Origin: a virus
Lineage: Duplodnaviria; Caudoviricetes
Direction: 5' to 3' (one strand)
DNA: 26,589 nucleotides
IMG/VR virus record: IMGVR_UViG_3300035148_000427
Coordinates: 1-26,589 of that record
In this document: piece by piece, positions 20,584 through 26,589 of the stretch
Numbering within the stretch: position 1 is the stretch's first letter
Layout of the letters: each line of letters begins with the position of its first letter
Translations under genes and position numbers: made by a program
The notes under the pieces: generated by a model
The model's input: the letters and a program-made list of their open reading frames with translations, nothing else
Told to the model about the DNA's origin: nothing
The model's database searches: none

Positions 20584-21549
20584 TTAGGCGATGACGTTCT
20601 TGAAGTAGACGCCGAGTTCGTCGGCGACCAGCTTGTTGTCATACGCCATCTCACCTTCGATGCGGTCGCTGCGGAGGCTCTGCATACGGAACCGCAACAT
20701 GCGGAGGCCGTTTGCCGAAGCGCCCAGGTAGCCCGTCCACGAGAAGGTGTACCCGGCAGTCGGCATCATGAGCGAAGGACGCGGCGCTGCGTAGCAGAGC
20801 AACGCGCACTTCTGGAACATGAACCGAAGGTCGTCTACGGCCTTCTCAGCGGCGATGTTCTCAATCGCGCCAGCGATGAGAACTTCCTCGATGCCCAACA
20901 CCGACGCCAGCAGGTCGATGTTCACAATCTTCCGCTGGGTGATGGCGATGCGGTCGAGGAAATCGCCGTTGTCCTGCAAAATGGTCCACACGTCCTCGGC
21001 AAGCACCAGCTTGTTCGGACGGAAGCCCGTTTTGCGCTTCATGGCAGACATCTGCGCTCGGATGTCGGCGATGGGCTTGGAACCACCCGCGCTCCAGAGA
21101 GTGCTTGGGGTGATGTCGCCGCCCGTTGTCGAACCCTTCCACACGCCGTCCTTGAAGTATTTGGTCGCCCAATCCTTCTCGCGGCGCAGGAGCAGACCGC
21201 GCGTCACGAACTCGGTGCTTGCGGCATCGAGGTTGAGCGGCGCGTCCTGGTTGGCTCGCAGTTGGTCGTCGATGTCCTTGTGCAACGCTTTGACGTTGCA
21301 CTGGTACGTCGGCGTGCTGTCAACGTCGAACCCGCTGCCCACGGACTCTTGGCTCAACCCGCGCTCACGCGCTTCGGTTCTGAACCACTGGCCCTTGGGG
21401 AACGTGAAGTAGCGGTCAGACTGCTTCGCCACTGGCACGTTCGGGAACACCTTGTCAGCAATGAATTCGGTTTGGTCCTGAAGGAAAGCCACGCTGATGT
21501 TGGTCAGCGGTGCGTTCACATGGACATCACTGGGAGTTGGTTGCGGCAT
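20584..21549 (-). CDS. Major capsid protein (HK97 fold)
   Basis: 321 aa; HV.APLTNISVA.......FIAD.VFP.VPV.KQS..Y, L..E...A, W......PI.DI........TG..PN....., PT.GYTF.W, G..F..VI motifs; AAGGAGG RBS. Confidence 0.9.
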   Translation of the reverse strand: MPQPTPSDVHVNAPLTNISVAFLQDQTEFIADKVFPNVPVAKQSDRYFTFPKGQWFRTEARERGLSQESVGSGFDVDSTPTYQCNVKALHKDIDDQLRANQDAPLNLDAASTEFVTRGLLLRREKDWATKYFKDGVWKGSTTGGDITPSTLWSAGGSKPIADIRAQMSAMKRKTGFRPNKLVLAEDVWTILQDNGDFLDRIAITQRKIVNIDLLASVLGIEEVLIAGAIENIAAEKAVDDLRFMFQKCALLCYAAPRPSLMMPTAGYTFSWTGYLGASANGLRMLRFRMQSLRSDRIEGEMAYDNKLVADELGVYFKNVIA

Positions 21550-21948: not shown

Positions 21949-22917
21949 TTACTCAACGCCCGCAGGCGAAAGTTGCTGTGGATGCTCCGACAAGTACCGC
22001 TGATAGAGGTCGGGGTGATTCTTCATCACCTGCGCCATGGCCTTCTCGCGGCTCATGGGCTTGTCCGACTTCTCAACGATGCCGTCAGCCATCTTGGTGA
22101 TTTGGTCCCAAGCCGACCCGCCCCCGCCGCCCATGTTCGGGTTGGTGGGGATTCCACCTTCGCTGAACATCGACGACTTCTTGATGGCGGCGCTTGCGGC
22201 CTTCATCTGCTCGAACTGCTTCTTGGCGAGTTCGGGGTTGATGTCGGCCAGACCCTTGAGCGTTTTGCCCATTTCCTCGGCAGACTGACCGGGGAAGTGG
22301 CTCAACTCAGTCTTGGCCTTCTCGACCCAAGACTCAAGTTCACGAGCGTCGCGCTCGGCCTTGAGCGACTTCTGAACCTCGTCGTTCTGCTTTCGCAGCG
22401 CTTCGAGTTCGTCTGTCTGGGCCTTGAAAAGCCCCTCAACGTCCTTGCGCACGTCCTCGGGCAACGACTCCAGACCCTTCTTGACCTTTTTCGAGGTCGC
22501 ATCCGGGTATCCGTACTCGTCGTCCTCTTCCGACTCGCCCTTCTTCTTGGTCTTCATCTTGTCCTTGCCGTTCATCATCTCATCTTCGGGCTTCTTTGCC
22601 TTTTCGGTGTAGCCCGCGATGCTTGCGAGTTTGGCAAGTACGTCCTTCGGCATCTCGTCCTTGAAAGCCTGAAGGATGCGCAGCGCGCCCTTCGCGGCCC
22701 CTTGGCCCTTGTCCGAAACCTTGGCTTCTTTGAGTACGGCGTCCAGCTCGGCCTCGCCGTCTGTCTCCGTCTCAAGGACAGCCTTCAGAATTTCCTGCAT
22801 GTCCATGGATTCCTCCGTTTTGAAGATGGGAAACCGCTTTTTACGGTTTGCCCCTCTGGTTACTAGGCTGACTTCGGCTGCCTTCAGACCAGTCAGCGCG
22901 GTCAACTCCTTGTTCAC
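21949..22917 (-). CDS. Scaffolding protein with an N-terminal protease-like EVSLV..GAN segment
   Basis: 322 aa, highly charged coiled coil between protease and capsid genes; GTGA overlap and AAGGAG RBS; C-terminal helix-turn-helix ending PDLYQRY. Confidence 0.8.
   Translation of the reverse strand: MNKELTALTGLKAAEVSLVTRGANRKKRFPIFKTEESMDMQEILKAVLETETDGEAELDAVLKEAKVSDKGQGAAKGALRILQAFKDEMPKDVLAKLASIAGYTEKAKKPEDEMMNGKDKMKTKKKGESEEDDEYGYPDATSKKVKKGLESLPEDVRKDVEGLFKAQTDELEALRKQNDEVQKSLKAERDARELESWVEKAKTELSHFPGQSAEEMGKTLKGLADINPELAKKQFEQMKAASAAIKKSSMFSEGGIPTNPNMGGGGGSAWDQITKMADGIVEKSDKPMSREKAMAQVMKNHPDLYQRYLSEHPQQLSPAGVE
22804..22816 (-). promoter_or_regulatory. Internal RBS (GGAGG) and in-frame ATG (Met38) in the scaffold gene
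   Basis: Minus strand GGAGG-AATCC-ATG-GAC-ATG, in frame with 21949..22917. Confidence 0.6.
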
Positions 22918-25900
22918 TTCGCTTCTCCTTCTGCCGGTACGAGGTCTAGGAATGTGACCTTCGGCATCATTCCCTCAGACATCGGTGCGCGGAAACCAAC
23001 CCCACCAGGACTGAAGGCGTTGACATCGCCGTCTTGGTAGGCTTTCCACTCATCATCGCCGAGTTGAACGCCAAGGACCCATGACCCAGAGTGCAAAACG
23101 TCCGAACCGAATTTTCTTCGGTAGACTGAATGATTCTCCCCTCGCATCGCTTTGAGGTATTCGGCACGCGATGGGTATTGCTCGACCCAACTTTCGACCA
23201 CTTTGGCATCTGCCTTGGCCTTATGTTGAAATCCAATCACCATCTGTCCCTTCAAGAAGGCGTGCGCCGTTTCCTCTACCGCTGCGGGTGGAATCCAGTC
23301 GTTGTGCGCATCGGCACGCGGACCGTTTGGCCCATACGGGTCAACCACCACCCCGTAGACGATTCGCTTGGTTTGGTCGGCTTTGGAGATTGCAACGTGC
23401 TTCCTCGCCTCTGCCACCTTGCCGCTGCGAACGTCGTACTTCACCGGCTTCTCGCCAGGTTTCGCCCACACGACGAAATCCCGGCCTTTCCGCCGTTGTT
23501 CGCTTATGACATCAGCGAGTTCTTGAGCCTCGGCTCTGGGCTTCTGGTCGGTGGGCTTGTCAATCAGCCACACCCTTTCCGCCCCTAACCTCGGCAGCGT
23601 CAACATATATCTCCCAGAAAGGTACTTGCCGTCAAGGAAAATTTCTACGGCGTGCTGGGTAGCGACTCCGAGTTGGTAGGTCCCCTCGTCGCGCACGAAA
23701 AACTTCGAGTAGGTCTGCGACGTGGAGCCTGGGCCACCCGGCTCGACCGCCTCACCTTTGCCTTCGCCCATTTTCAACCAATCTTTGGGCTGCTGGAGCT
23801 TGGGCGCAAGGCGAAGATTTTGGTCGGCCTTGAGGTCGATGAGTTTGTCCTTGTGCGTCAACCCTCGGTTGTCTTTCGTTTCGCCGAGAAACACCGCCCA
23901 TCCAAAAAGTCCGTCTGGGCCTTCCAACCGGATGTCGCCATGAACCGAATGGTCGGTGGTGTCCATCAGCGCCTCGTCGGTCATGCCCTTCTGTTTTTCG
24001 TCGAGGCCCCGCCAATGGTGCTGGTAAACAAACCGACCGCCTTGCTTGGTCGGCATGTACTCGTGCCAATTTTCTTCCCACAACCGCTGCGCACGGTCGC
24101 CACGAGTTTCTTCCTCGCCCTCCGTTTTGCGGATTGCGTCGAGGATGCGCCCTGTTTTGCGCCCGACCTCTCCTGAATCACCGAATCGTCGCACAGCGGA
24201 CGGGTGCGGGAGGACAAAGCCTGCGCGTTCCCCCAACATGCGCTTGGCTGTTTGACCGAGCGCGACAACGACCTTCGGTTTCATGCGGTCGAGTTCGTCG
24301 TGAAGCCAGGGCTTCCATTCCTCGGCCTCGGCATTGGTTGGCTCCCGTACCTTTCCCTTCTCGTCGGTCAAAAACCGAGGCACGGCGTTGGTCATCGCTA
24401 CGTCCGCACGCGATAGCCCAAGCGGTTTCAAGTACATCTCGACAAAAAGTTCTGAGCCTGCCCCCACGAAGGGTTCGCCGCGCACCGCCTCCGTCCTACT
24501 AGGCGATGCGCCGACGAACATGATGGGAGCACCCTCCGGTCCAAAAGTCGGCACGATGTCGAGCGCCTTTTGAAGCACAGCGGCTCGGCGTGCAACGTCA
24601 ATCGCTTGCGCGGCGAAGTAGGGAGCTTTGCGCGTGCGGTCAACGTCAATGACCCTCGGCCCCAACCACATGAGGCGTTTTCCCGCCTCATCGGGGATGA
24701 GTTCAAGAACCTGCACGGTCAAAACCTCACCCGGCTTTGCCTCAATGTTCGTGTTGAATGTCTTGCCGAGGTCGATGTACTCGGTCCCGTTCAATGAGCG
24801 GGTGTTGGCGAACTCAAGGTCGCCAGGCAGTAATCCGCACCAATAGTTGTAGTCACCTGTTTTGGTTTTTTGTGCGTCGAGCACTGCGACCTTGAGTTCT
24901 GCCACCCGCTTGAGTTTCGACCATTCGTTGGTCGTGCCGCCTGTCTCATACTTTCCAGTAGAGGTCTTGGCGACCAATCCTTCCGAAGCATCGAAACCAA
25001 AGGCCCATTTCGCCGCTGCCTTGAGCGCAGGCAACGAATTCACCCACCGCGCTTGCGTGATGGGCAACTTTCCTTTCACCTTCGACTCGAGAATTTCTCG
25101 CCTGTCCTTGAACGGAAGGTCGCTCAAATCCTCGTCGAGGAACGGCGCGTCGAAAACAGTCACGACGATTTTCTCGCCCGCGTCCAGTTTCGGGTCGTCG
25201 CTGTTCAGTTTCGCCATCATGTTTCTGGGCAATCGCTTGCCCTCCTTCTCGATGGCAATGTCCGCGTCCAACACGAAATCGCCGCCCATTTTTTTGAGCG
25301 CGGCGGCGAGGTCGGGAAAGCGGTCGATGAGATTCTTGCCGATTTGACCCTCAAACCACGCGCCCACCTCATCGCCCTTCTTGAGCAAGATGGTTCTGAA
25401 CCCGTTGAGTTTTGGTTCAACGTCGATGGGCAAGCGGTCCTCTGCCCAAGCCCACACGTCGTCCACGTCATAGAGTTCGGTAAAGCCTTCGACCGCTGGC
25501 TTGGGTGGTGTGAATCGCTGGAACGGTTGCAACGCTTTTTCCACTGTGGAGGGCTTGCGCAAAGCGCCGCAGACGTAGATGAGATTTCCCTTCTTGCGCT
25601 CGACCAAATGCTCGACCTCGAACATGGGTCGGTTTTCAGCGAGGTCGGCCTGCGTCCAAAAGGCGAAACTCGCCTTGTTCCAAAATGACTTGTGCTCAGG
25701 GTGGGCGAAAGCGCCTGGGCCATCTGTCGAGGGAATCTCGAACACGAACCGCCCGCCTGGTTTGAGCACACGATGGATTTCTGCCATCACCTTCGATTTG
25801 TCTGCGAGGTGTTCGAGCACATGGTTCGCTCGAACCTCGTCCGCGTAGTCGTCGCTGAACGGTAGCCCACCATCGAGGTCGTGAACGAGGTCCACGCCTT

Positions 25901-26567
25901 CACCGCCGCGCTTGTCCACGCCGATGTAGCCTGCGGGTTTGCAATCGCCACAACCTATGTCGATGCGCACGTCCTCTGCCTTCACGAATTGCGTGGCGAT
26001 GTCCTCGCGCCGTCGCAGGACCAAATCGTAGAGGGGGATGAAGTCGCCGTGAGCGCCTTGGGGGTTGCTGAGCCAGTGGAGCTTTCCCTTTTTGTCTGGG
26101 TCGAGGGTGTTCCTGATGGGCAGCCACACGTTCTCGGATTGAATCACCACCTGTCCTGAATCTTTGTCCCACACCGCCCGAAGCATCACGTCCATATCCT
26201 TCGGGTCAGGATGTCCTTTCGCAAGCGACCCCACCACGGAAACGAAATCGCGCACCAACACCACGTCGCGGGGGAGTTCGTTCATGCGCTTGTGAAGCGC
26301 CCACCCTGTTTTCGTTTTGCGGAAATCTTCGATTGCATCCACGAGGGCGCTTGGGCTGATTTCAAACCCGCGCCGTTTCATCTCTTGGCTGACCCACACG
26401 GCAGCGTTGATGATGTCTTCGGTGGGCTGCTTGCGCTTTGTGGCGTTGGCAAACCACTGGTTGAGGCGTAGCCAAGCCTCGGAAATTTCCTCGTCGGGGA
26501 GCTTTTTCAACTGAGCGGGCCGCATATCGCCAAGGGCAACTTTTTCGAGCGTCGTGGGTTCGTCCAC
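22914..26567 (-). CDS. Multidomain polyprotein: NTase-like / SAM methyltransferase / ATP-dependent DNA ligase / UDG-like / LigD phosphoesterase-like / XkdF-type prohead protease (5' end uncertain)
   Basis: Motifs read from the translation: VVGS...DMDV; IDIGCG...HVLEH...RVLKPGG; EPKLNGFR, VFD, EGLVAK, WSKLK; FVGASP...E...GEPFVG, TN, VALG, HPS; FVYQHH, HGDIRLE, WAV, RDEGTY, LDG..LSGRY; RIVYGVV..P...DAH.D, IGFQH, VVESW, GSWVLG, FSPGG. Confidence 0.9.
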   Translation of the reverse strand: MDEPTTLEKVALGDMRPAQLKKLPDEEISEAWLRLNQWFANATKRKQPTEDIINAAVWVSQEMKRRGFEISPSALVDAIEDFRKTKTGWALHKRMNELPRDVVLVRDFVSVVGSLAKGHPDPKDMDVMLRAVWDKDSGQVVIQSENVWLPIRNTLDPDKKGKLHWLSNPQGAHGDFIPLYDLVLRRREDIATQFVKAEDVRIDIGCGDCKPAGYIGVDKRGGEGVDLVHDLDGGLPFSDDYADEVRANHVLEHLADKSKVMAEIHRVLKPGGRFVFEIPSTDGPGAFAHPEHKSFWNKASFAFWTQADLAENRPMFEVEHLVERKKGNLIYVCGALRKPSTVEKALQPFQRFTPPKPAVEGFTELYDVDDVWAWAEDRLPIDVEPKLNGFRTILLKKGDEVGAWFEGQIGKNLIDRFPDLAAALKKMGGDFVLDADIAIEKEGKRLPRNMMAKLNSDDPKLDAGEKIVVTVFDAPFLDEDLSDLPFKDRREILESKVKGKLPITQARWVNSLPALKAAAKWAFGFDASEGLVAKTSTGKYETGGTTNEWSKLKRVAELKVAVLDAQKTKTGDYNYWCGLLPGDLEFANTRSLNGTEYIDLGKTFNTNIEAKPGEVLTVQVLELIPDEAGKRLMWLGPRVIDVDRTRKAPYFAAQAIDVARRAAVLQKALDIVPTFGPEGAPIMFVGASPSRTEAVRGEPFVGAGSELFVEMYLKPLGLSRADVAMTNAVPRFLTDEKGKVREPTNAEAEEWKPWLHDELDRMKPKVVVALGQTAKRMLGERAGFVLPHPSAVRRFGDSGEVGRKTGRILDAIRKTEGEEETRGDRAQRLWEENWHEYMPTKQGGRFVYQHHWRGLDEKQKGMTDEALMDTTDHSVHGDIRLEGPDGLFGWAVFLGETKDNRGLTHKDKLIDLKADQNLRLAPKLQQPKDWLKMGEGKGEAVEPGGPGSTSQTYSKFFVRDEGTYQLGVATQHAVEIFLDGKYLSGRYMLTLPRLGAERVWLIDKPTDQKPRAEAQELADVISEQRRKGRDFVVWAKPGEKPVKYDVRSGKVAEARKHVAISKADQTKRIVYGVVVDPYGPNGPRADAHNDWIPPAAVEETAHAFLKGQMVIGFQHKAKADAKVVESWVEQYPSRAEYLKAMRGENHSVYRRKFGSDVLHSGSWVLGVQLGDDEWKAYQDGDVNAFSPGGVGFRAPMSEGMMPKVTFLDLVPAEGEAK
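22917..23381 (-). other. XkdF-like phage serine (prohead) protease domain, aa ~1063-1217
   Basis: KRIVYGVVVDP, DAHNDW, VEETAHAFL, IGFQH (candidate His1115), GSWVLGV, W.....G...AFSPGG (candidate Ser1186); sits at the protease position before scaffold and MCP. Confidence 0.88.
23553..24041 (-). other. LigD-type 3'-phosphoesterase (PE) domain, aa ~843-1005
   Basis: Colinear match to the PE consensus as recalled: FVxQxH, HxDxRLE, WAV, RLA, DxGxY, FxLDGxxLxGRY, WLxxK. Confidence 0.8.
24129..24563 (-). other. Uracil-DNA glycosylase family-4-like domain, aa ~669-813
   Basis: G...A.IMFVG.SP...E...GEPFVG..., TNAV, P...E....PWL..EL...KPKVVVALG.TA, HPS. Confidence 0.88.
24573..25532 (-). other. ATP-dependent DNA ligase (adenylation + OB domain), aa ~346-665
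   Basis: Motif I EPKLNGFR (K386), III FVLDAD, IIIa VFD, P...RR..L, IV EGLVAK, V WSKLK, followed by a beta-rich OB-like region. Confidence 0.9.
25554..25976 (-). other. Class I SAM-dependent methyltransferase domain (Methyltransf_11-like), aa ~198-338
   Basis: IDIGCG, GVD, DLVHDL...LPF.D...DEV...HVLEH, M.EIHRVLKPGG.F...P. Confidence 0.88.
25998..26270 (-). other. Pol-beta-superfamily nucleotidyltransferase-like domain, aa ~100-190
   Basis: hhGS-x9-DhDh signature: VSVVGSLAKGHPDPKDMDVML. Confidence 0.6.
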
Positions 26568-26589
26568 ACGCGCACGCGCAAGCGCGCCC

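Follow-up and report, generated by a model that had tools for sequence, protein, structure and literature searches.

Candidate lysine cut sites at the enzyme junctions of a phage polyprotein ending in an XkdF/assemblin-type prohead protease

Tailed phages are, to our knowledge, not known for polyproteins that are cut at every domain join in the manner of RNA viruses, and the virion RNA polymerase of phage N4 is packaged whole. Cleavage of packaged enzymes by prohead proteases is already known, as are polyvalent proteins that end in an assemblin-like peptidase. The head proteases T4 gp21, phiKZ gp175 and SPN3US gp245 share the fold of the protease described here; they use a short x-x-P1 code with cleavage after Glu and remove propeptides from proteins that have genes of their own, and, in the parts of the literature cited here, those of T4 and SPN3US process packaged, ejected proteins such as Alt (PMC9026906, PMC5694885). 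HK97 gp4, which is whole and carries no enzyme cargo, cuts the capsid protein gp5 at K103/S104, as given in PMC10275583. Iyer et al. 2017 (PMC5512222) described phage proteins that join several enzymes to an assemblin-like peptidase at the C-terminus, proposed a virion-processing role for this peptidase and had already drawn the analogy with viral polyproteins; section 8 of that paper has polyvalent proteins with peptidase domains transferred uncut, and its sections cited here give no cleavage site or code. Our literature search for a junction code in phage polyproteins found none.

The window, i.e. the whole 26,589-nt stretch of IMG/VR record IMGVR_UViG_3300035148_000427 that we analysed, encodes a polyprotein in which several unrelated enzyme domains share one chain among virion genes and are followed by a C-terminal assemblin-like peptidase, as in the polyvalent proteins of Iyer et al. 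(Table 1). UDG and glycosylase are absent from the main text of that paper, while its figure 4A or outside files may list this architecture (PMC5512222); the window protein, the start of which lies outside the window, has no Pfam or PHROG match to the zincin metallopeptidase, ArdC-N, MuF or ART hub domains. Counted from the GTG at 26567, the minus-strand ORF (26567-22914) is 1217 aa long. Residue numbers are provisional, since the frame is open, the GTG is preceded by no ribosome-binding site and more than 30 residues precede the first core in 26 of the 29 database homologues, as compared to 8 here; the true start is probably past the contig end. Two modules were assigned with the help of relatives: Pfam NTP_transf_2 matched the nucleotidyltransferase in relatives only (E 0.0027 and 0.0003; no match to the window polyprotein), a module that is also poorly modelled, and LigD_N matched the phosphoesterase in relatives only (E 4e-4, 6e-4 and 2e-15). 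The best Foldseek matches of the ligase module are DNA ligases. The next gene is called scaffold on account of its position and make-up, and had no match among the named families of Pfam and PHROG.

Table 1. Coordinates of the polyprotein, its modules and candidate sites, and the neighbouring head genes
Feature	Position	Strand	Evidence
Cargo-protease polyprotein, open frame	22914..26588	(-)	frame runs open to contig end
Residues 1-196, N-terminal helical region and predicted Pol-beta-like nucleotidyltransferase	25980..26567	(-)	G113, S114, D124, D126 invariant
Residues 197-344, SAM-dependent methyltransferase module	25536..25979	(-)	Pfam Methyltransf_11, E 8.6e-11
Residues 345-667, ATP-dependent DNA ligase (adenylation and OB part)	24567..25535	(-)	Pfam DNA_ligase_A_M, E 1.1e-14
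Residues 668-814, uracil-DNA glycosylase superfamily module	24126..24566	(-)	Pfam UDG, E 3e-22
Residues 815-1062, predicted LigD-type 3'-phosphoesterase (PE) module	23382..24125	(-)	H851, H876, D878, R880, Y964 invariant
Residues 1063-1217, XkdF/assemblin-type prohead protease without last strand	22917..23381	(-)	Pfam Peptidase_S78_2, E 7.2e-13
Catalytic His H1115	23223-23225	(-)	invariant in 20/20 and 54/54
Catalytic Ser S1186	23010-23012	(-)	invariant in 20/20 and 54/54
FRK84/T, present, not supported as site	26313..26324	(-)	K in 14/69 relatives; helix in model
Junction site FVK196/A	25977..25988	(-)	column in 64 relatives: K 46, R 0
Junction site VEK344/A	25533..25544	(-)	column in 21 relatives: K 13, R 1
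Junction site LQK667/A	24564..24575	(-)	K in 36/58 relatives
Junction site IRK814/T	24123..24134	(-)	K in 17/52 at column; K 28 three columns further
Junction site ISK1062/A, at protease edge	23379..23390	(-)	K 68, R 0 among 75 relatives
Scaffold, 322 aa, 8 motif sites	21949..22917	(-)	start overlaps polyprotein stop
Scaffold residues 1-33, predicted last protease strand (E15, S17, V19), ends IFK33/T	22819..22917	(-)	invariant 27/27
Major capsid protein, without leader or motif site	20584..21549	(-)	phrog_1005, E 3.8e-86

A sequence-only reading had placed a hydrophobic-x-Lys motif followed by Ala or Thr at all five domain junctions, and all five are located where it put them. Written as [FILVWYM]-x-K/[ATS], the motif matches 10 times among the 98 lysines of the polyprotein (5.0 in shuffles; 59/2000 shuffles were as high) and 8 times in the scaffold (2.3 in shuffles; 1/2000 equally high), where the seven sites listed in that reading are joined by MGK218/T. 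The 20 other window proteins have 22 matches as compared to 19.7 in shuffles; the capsid protein has none (1.4 in shuffles), nor does the decoration protein. The four internal occurrences that had been pointed out, at K298, K534, K602 and K1139, are also present. In the structure model these internal lysines lie in blocks of pLDDT 84-90, as compared to blocks of pLDDT 37-68 for four junction lysines, although near K196 the low confidence spans the whole nucleotidyltransferase. K1062 lies inside a predicted strand (pLDDT 83) and inside the Pfam XkdF match (1059-1190). The suggestion that K84 delimits the N-terminal domain did not hold, and we rejected it as a sixth site given how few relatives have Lys there; its linker has the Arg version of the motif in 12/63. 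In-register conservation among close relatives was likewise discarded as a discriminator, as internal sites (K298 6/9, K1139 10/24) score as well as junction sites (K196 8/22, K814 2/27). The K814 site slides inside its linker among relatives; linkers at this junction contain the motif in 23/45 cases (6.1 expected).

As the motif was defined post hoc in the window, the linkers of relatives served as the held-out test: 302 inter-module linkers from 96 non-redundant relatives, window excluded, with expectations from shuffles that preserve linker make-up. The enrichment at junctions that the sequence-only reading expected of homologues is there: hydrophobic-x-K/[AST] is found in 164/302 linkers versus 41.1 in shuffles (maximum 58 in 300 shuffles), in 109/236 versus about 30 when the PE-protease junction is set aside, and in 64/130 versus 17.4 at 50% identity, counts that come from relatives that are not independent. 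Motif density is 2.46 per 100 aa in linkers versus 0.52 in cores, and linkers are denser than cores in 75/89 proteins, with core limits drawn when the site positions were already known. Neither the Arg version (17/302 linkers versus 29.5 expected) nor the Glu version (36/302 versus 32.5) is enriched, while a control with the hydrophobic residue directly before Lys, phi-K/[ATS], is likewise enriched (85/302 versus 43.3). The strict motif occurs at 9/143 boundaries within one enzyme; a loose form without P1' occurs at 123/143 of them and was rejected, as it does not set such boundaries apart. Inserted modules have the motif at their borders (12/28 and 11/28 versus 3.6 and 3.0 expected), and their middles show no enrichment (11/106 versus 10.6). 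At P1', Ala (3.5x), Ser (2.7x) and Gln (2.2x) are over-represented and Thr is under-represented (0.53x): Ala stands, Thr does not, and hydrophobic-x-K/[ASQ] describes the code better. Similarly, the same motif at every junction is true of the window, but the strict form is found throughout in only 11 of the 48 relatives with at least three direct junctions; with P1' widened to A/T/S/G/Q/E, all junctions are matched in 32 of these 48.

The motif differs between relatives with different protease types. Scaffolds adjoining an XkdF protease have 358 motifs versus 115.6 expected (57 proteins); scaffold parts with another protease type have 33 versus 41.7 (27 proteins) and show [EQ][LM][AS] instead (62 versus 19.4). 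Module flanks give 129 versus 33.0 in the XkdF class and 7 versus 6.2 with the other type. In two relatives with a third protease type (L125 and L132), E and L replace K at two junctions each, in agreement with their inferred capsid borders. The tree-based test of protease/motif co-variation, run on a quick tree, gave two independent pairs on supported branches and was not significant (sign test p 0.5-1).

Known cut sites fit this pattern to differing degrees. Some phage head proteases do cut after Lys, as the sequence-only reading stated: HK97 K103/S104 reads FNK/S and fits hydrophobic-x-K/S, with four motifs in residues 1-103 of gp5 (the removed delta domain) and none in the mature part, and the GenBank mature capsid peptide of Listeria phage A511 starts at S24, after K23. 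The Lys-Ser bond claimed for A511 is right as to where the mature peptide begins, but its site, ALK/S, has Ala at P3 and falls outside the strict motif. Gp5 of 0105phi7-2 and gp13 of HSTV-1 are XkdF-family proteases (tblastn E 9e-8 and 6e-8) in which protease and scaffold form one gene without enzyme cargo; the former begins with this same strand, followed by the Lys site, and has 12 motifs in 408 aa. In 0105phi7-2 virions capsid residues 1-10 are missing, and K11 reads IEK/A, a position that its authors call undetermined because the virion data came from trypsin. Our literature search for a stated A511 or XkdF cut site found none, PMC3601020 and PMC12282133 not being informative on this point.

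The Peptidase_S78_2 profile matches the C-terminal domain over residues 1059-1190 with 49.1 bits (curated cut-off 24), and this domain is fused to the polyprotein in 145/169 polyproteins. It belongs to the same clan as HK97 gp4 (hhalign probability 80.7, E 1.3e-5), with the His and Ser motifs of which H1115 and S1186 align. The fold comparison used the protease of a relative (L033, pLDDT 88) rather than the window's own domain: Foldseek ranks 1-11 are T4 gp21, the best match (E 6.6e-4), and herpesvirus proteases. A sequence search for a solved structure of the window protease found none, and an initial search of viral sequences with this domain alone gave no match. Unlike HK97 gp4, the window protease is split over two genes and ends a five-module chain, and its capsid protein has no site; unlike in the T4, phiKZ and SPN3US systems, the code is Lys and is placed between enzymes of one chain. 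The last strand (E-h-S-h-V..P/G-A-N, h hydrophobic) is missing from the polyprotein end and is found at the scaffold N-terminus, where it aligns with HK97 gp4 141-160 (the scaffold profile by itself gave no significant match to gp4, E 0.62). E-h-S-h-V is present in 44/57 genes directly following a protease gene, and 8 loci have the strand in cis, after the protease. As the Pfam family ends before this strand, its absence bears on the completeness of the enzyme and not on family membership. The domain is thus likely incomplete without the first 33 scaffold residues, and the predicted 'self'-cleavage likely needs the scaffold. The view of a self-processed polyprotein keeps its enriched junction code and its protease in the same ORF, but, with the last strand in the scaffold, processing is probably not autonomous, unlike that of RNA-virus polyproteins.

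We estimate a probability of roughly 0.7 that the XkdF/assemblin protease cuts both scaffold and polyprotein after hydrophobic-x-Lys sites. Completed by scaffold residues 1-33, it would switch on when the polyprotein meets the scaffold and then digest the latter; cuts at K196, K344, K667 and K814, and less surely at K1062, would yield pieces of 16-36 kDa, with folding shielding the internal matches. Each enzyme module would be released as a protein of its own, probably while the head around it is assembling. The least certain steps are that the freed enzymes would remain in the head and be delivered with the DNA into the next cell, and that they would serve there as an end-repair and counter-defence kit.

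It is rather unlikely that the sites are real but serve to free the protease and, late in infection, to discard the cargo or set it loose in the cytoplasm, with no delivery by the virion. In favour of this, packaging is itself a prediction, cargo and protease are separate genes in 9 polyproteins that have the other protease class, and a protease in solution could be completed by the 33-residue leader. However, the gene is part of the head module and is coupled to the start of the scaffold, relatives bear Acb1 and other early-acting modules, and the proteases of T4 and SPN3US process enzymes that are packaged and ejected. Less probable still is a chain that stays uncut like the N4 polymerase, the motif serving as a signal for binding or packaging, or as a protease tether that resembles a substrate; the uncut peptidase-bearing proteins of Iyer et al. 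and the strict site missing at some junction in many relatives would agree with this, but the same pattern is the proven HK97 cut, it ends capsid leaders in 20/24 XkdF loci with a capsid unlike the window's type, and a repeated packaging tag would seem needless where chain and protease are already fused. The least probable reading, that the lysines are structural domain ends or an inherited linker and that common descent and lysine-rich linkers account for the enrichment, gains from the non-independence of relatives, the strand around K1062, the conserved internal sites and an equally fixed, possibly structural Met at the nucleotidyltransferase end in the other class (14/15), but composition-keeping shuffles reach a quarter of the observed count, five unrelated folds share one terminal pattern, the K814 site slides, E or L substitutes where the protease differs, and scaffolds carry the motif while 20 other window proteins show no excess.

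Cleavage at the Lys code, if true, would predict the specificity of the XkdF proteases, a family so far unstudied. It would also allow unannotated phage proteins to be divided into modules by a readable rule, which could lead to new counter-defence enzymes that are injected, and would be a simple means of loading several enzymes per capsid at a fixed ratio. Two cloned genes suffice for a direct test of both the junction code and the split protease. More tentatively, at somewhat less than even odds, a widespread uncultured phage family may use its prohead protease both to process a polyprotein and as a loading dock. Exchangeable enzymes (ligase, glycosylase, methyltransferases, Acb1, metallo-hydrolases) would ride on a split protease that is activated only once the scaffold provides its missing last strand, be cut apart in the head at the Lys code and be injected, with a protease swap rewriting the junction residue from Lys to Met/Leu or to Glu.

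Genes upstream of the polyprotein show no overall motif excess that separates the protease classes (O/E 1.16 versus 1.35) and a mild excess in their first 40 residues (51 versus 28.2). Three genome matches fall in bins of three different phyla.

The window is a linear virus record of 26.6 kb (completeness estimate 41%) whose minus strand carries genes for the head, neck and contractile tail. The first gene, an ORF of 1217 residues, matches Pfam profiles for methyltransferase (MTase), ATP-dependent DNA ligase, uracil-DNA glycosylase (UDG) and XkdF protease; a scaffold-like gene (322 residues) overlaps its stop and is followed by a decoration-like gene and then the capsid gene. The nucleotidyltransferase (NTase) and LigD-type phosphoesterase (PE) labels are tentative, coming from weak matches in relatives and invariant residues, with none from the window itself. 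As judged by sequence, the polyprotein ORF is probably truncated at the contig end and its GTG is probably not the start: the GTG has no upstream ribosome-binding site, the frame stays open to the contig end (26568-26588, minus strand), where it resembles the longer N-terminus of relatives, and 8 residues precede the first core, versus more than 30 in 26 of 29 database homologues. As the ORF is probably cut, residue numbering is provisional. The UDG module (24126-24566, minus strand) has G-A-S-P as its first motif and lacks cysteines, unlike the family-4 enzymes, which are iron-sulfur proteins; its activity may differ from the usual one.

The sequence-only reading had proposed that one motif, hydrophobic-x-K↓[A/T] (the arrow marking the putative cut), recurs at all five domain junctions as a candidate self-cleavage code, and every motif that it listed, the scaffold's K↓S forms among them, is present in the window. 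Taking this motif, with Ser also allowed after Lys, as given before relatives were counted, we used core profiles from alignment A1 on 34 long homologues and 150 loci; 169 proteins with at least three cores were kept and reduced to 97 at 70% identity, the window protein then being left out of these, and a junction was counted only if both profile matches reached their ends and the linker spanned 10-45 residues. The predicted enrichment was recovered: the motif occurs in 164/302 linkers versus 41.1 in shuffles (maximum 58), and at 50% identity in 64/130 versus 17.4 expected. Its density per 100 residues is 2.46 in linkers versus 0.52 in cores, boundaries within a single enzyme carry it in 9/143 cases, and replacing Lys by Arg or Glu in the motif gives no linker enrichment in relatives. 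Core limits were drawn with the sites known, and K1062 was put in the linker although the Pfam match begins at 1059; leaving out the PE-protease junction, the motif is found in 109/236 linkers versus ~30 expected. Two further observations count against the result: the control pattern phi-K↓[ATS] is also enriched in linkers (85 versus 43.3), probably reflecting an often hydrophobic P2, and a loose motif matches most within-enzyme windows.

Not all of the proposed code carries over to relatives. Alanine after the linker Lys is enriched 3.5-fold, followed by Ser (2.7-fold) and Gln (2.2-fold), while Thr, also part of the proposal, is depleted (0.53-fold). A motif at every junction holds for the window; among relatives the strict form is found everywhere in only 11/48, and with a wider P1' in 32/48. 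A few loci (L028, L059, L139, L235) have Arg where others have the site Lys, at the capsid leader or protease border, a hint of Arg-tolerant proteases.

Within the window, the scaffold contains 8 motifs versus 2.3 in shuffles (as high in 1/2000), the polyprotein is mildly enriched (10 versus 5.0; as high in 59/2000), the 20 other proteins are at chance (22 versus 19.7) and the capsid protein has none. In a structure model covering residues 18-1217 (input 28 sequences; NTase poorly modelled throughout), K196, K344 and K667 lie in coil (block pLDDT 37, 68 and 49), K814 at the end of a helix (62) and K1062 in a strand (83); the internal K298, K534 (which we take to be the lysine of ligase motif IV), K602 and K1139 lie within helices or strands (84-90). 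Eight residues upstream of K1062, within a segment that the model shows as flexible, 42/75 relatives have a second Lys that is absent from the window. Y-L-K1139↓A (23150-23161, minus strand) sits within a subfamily-specific protease insert, is kept in 10/24 close relatives and is a possible self-inactivation site of the protease.

Protease family alignments show no variation at His1115 or Ser1186. HK97 gp4 can be aligned to the profile of this family (E 1.3e-5), and T4 gp21 and herpesvirus proteases are matched by the model of a relative's protease, both of which argue against the description of XkdF as unrelated in a passage of PMC7824862. The polyprotein lacks the domain-closing strand of HK97 gp4, which is instead found at the start of the scaffold gene. 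The same split occurs in most relatives (44/57 next genes). Elsewhere the arrangement is cis or circularly permuted: in 8 loci the strand lies downstream of the protease within one chain and is modelled inside the domain (pLDDT >90), and in 0105phi7-2 gp5 it lies upstream of the protease. In the scaffold leader (residues 1-33), E15, S17, V19 and K33 are invariant in 27/27; the leader-end residue is Lys in 55/55, and the next mostly Ser, Glu, Arg or Gln. We infer that the leader completes the protease in trans.

Motif occurrence by junction in relatives, and coordinates of split or altered features
Feature	Coordinates	Observation
Split protease	window 22819-22917 (-) with 22917-23381 (-)	last strand at scaffold gene start
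PE-protease junction		motif in 55/66 linkers
UDG-PE junction		motif in 23/45 linkers
ligase-UDG junction		motif in 22/35 linkers
MTase-ligase junction		motif in 15/24 linkers
NTase-MTase junction		motif in 8/16 linkers
NTase-ligase junction		motif in 10/18 linkers
ligase-PE junction		motif in only 4/20 linkers
K84 junction		motif in 21/63 linkers
K-replaced junctions	L125:8018-13121 (Glu), L132:4913-9639 (Leu)	match inferred border of protease-capsid fusion proteins

Other head proteases accompany this cargo in some relatives; one class of them aligns weakly with XkdF. In these relatives the Lys motif occurs at chance frequency at module flanks (7 versus 6.2; XkdF class 129 versus 33.0), is not above chance in scaffolds (33 versus 41.7; XkdF 358 versus 115.6) and is present at the NTase end in 1/15 (XkdF 28/51). 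Instead, [EQ]-[LM]↓[AS] occurs 62 times versus 19.4, in counts from the same loci from which the pattern was derived, and fits 23/29 of their capsid leaders. With a third protease, in two loci, Lys is replaced at two junctions each by the residue of the inferred capsid borders. On the cargo tree there are four class changes and two independent pairs, too few for significance of protease/motif co-variation. Several divergent XkdF loci retain Met at the NTase end, most adding a Lys site directly after it. The Lys motif lies in the first 35 capsid residues in 20/24 XkdF loci with a capsid unlike the window's type and in 3/47 for the window's type.

We regard the junction motif as a real feature; the simplest account, to which we give a probability of roughly 0.7, is that hydrophobic-x-K↓ is the XkdF protease cut site on scaffold and polyprotein alike. 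HK97 is cut at K103/S104 according to a section of PMC10275583; this site reads F-N-K↓S, and the piece cut away holds four motifs, the mature capsid none. The A511 mature capsid, as annotated, begins after A-L-K23. In 0105phi7-2 virions, part of PMC10219371 reports capsid residues 1-10 missing, K11 (I-E-K↓A) being ambiguous owing to trypsin. By analogy with T4 and SPN3US (portions of PMC9026906 and PMC5694885), the odds are about even that the polyprotein products would remain in the head and then be injected. Sections of Iyer 2017 (PMC5512222) describe polyvalent proteins with an assemblin-like peptidase at the end, and sections of PMC9503650 Nudix fusions to the capsid-processing peptidase, neither giving a cleavage code there; literature searches covering few subscription papers listed none for such junctions.

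Relatives also carry inserted D12 methyltransferase, metallo-beta-lactamase-fold, GNAT, 2H, DHH and Acb1 modules, as seen in 30 proteins picked for long inserts or odd ends. The motif marks 12 left borders (3.6 expected) and 11 right borders (3.0 expected) of 28 inserts of at least 100 residues, and is at chance in insert middles (11/106 windows versus 10.6). One protease-fused polyprotein (L121:6683-10885) has an inserted anti-CBASS Acb1 domain (Pfam E 2.6e-22), and inteins/LAGLIDADG lie inside the ligase and PE modules of two related polyproteins (L148:4853-12604, L149:5453-10273). Finally, one head protease family, nearly devoid of Pfam or PHROG matches (L064:9517-10617, L126:10113-11243, L138, L149, L067 and loci L154-L178), has His70 and Ser116 invariant in 5/5, and its capsid leaders end in I-Q-E-L↓A-like sequences, a candidate second cleavage code.
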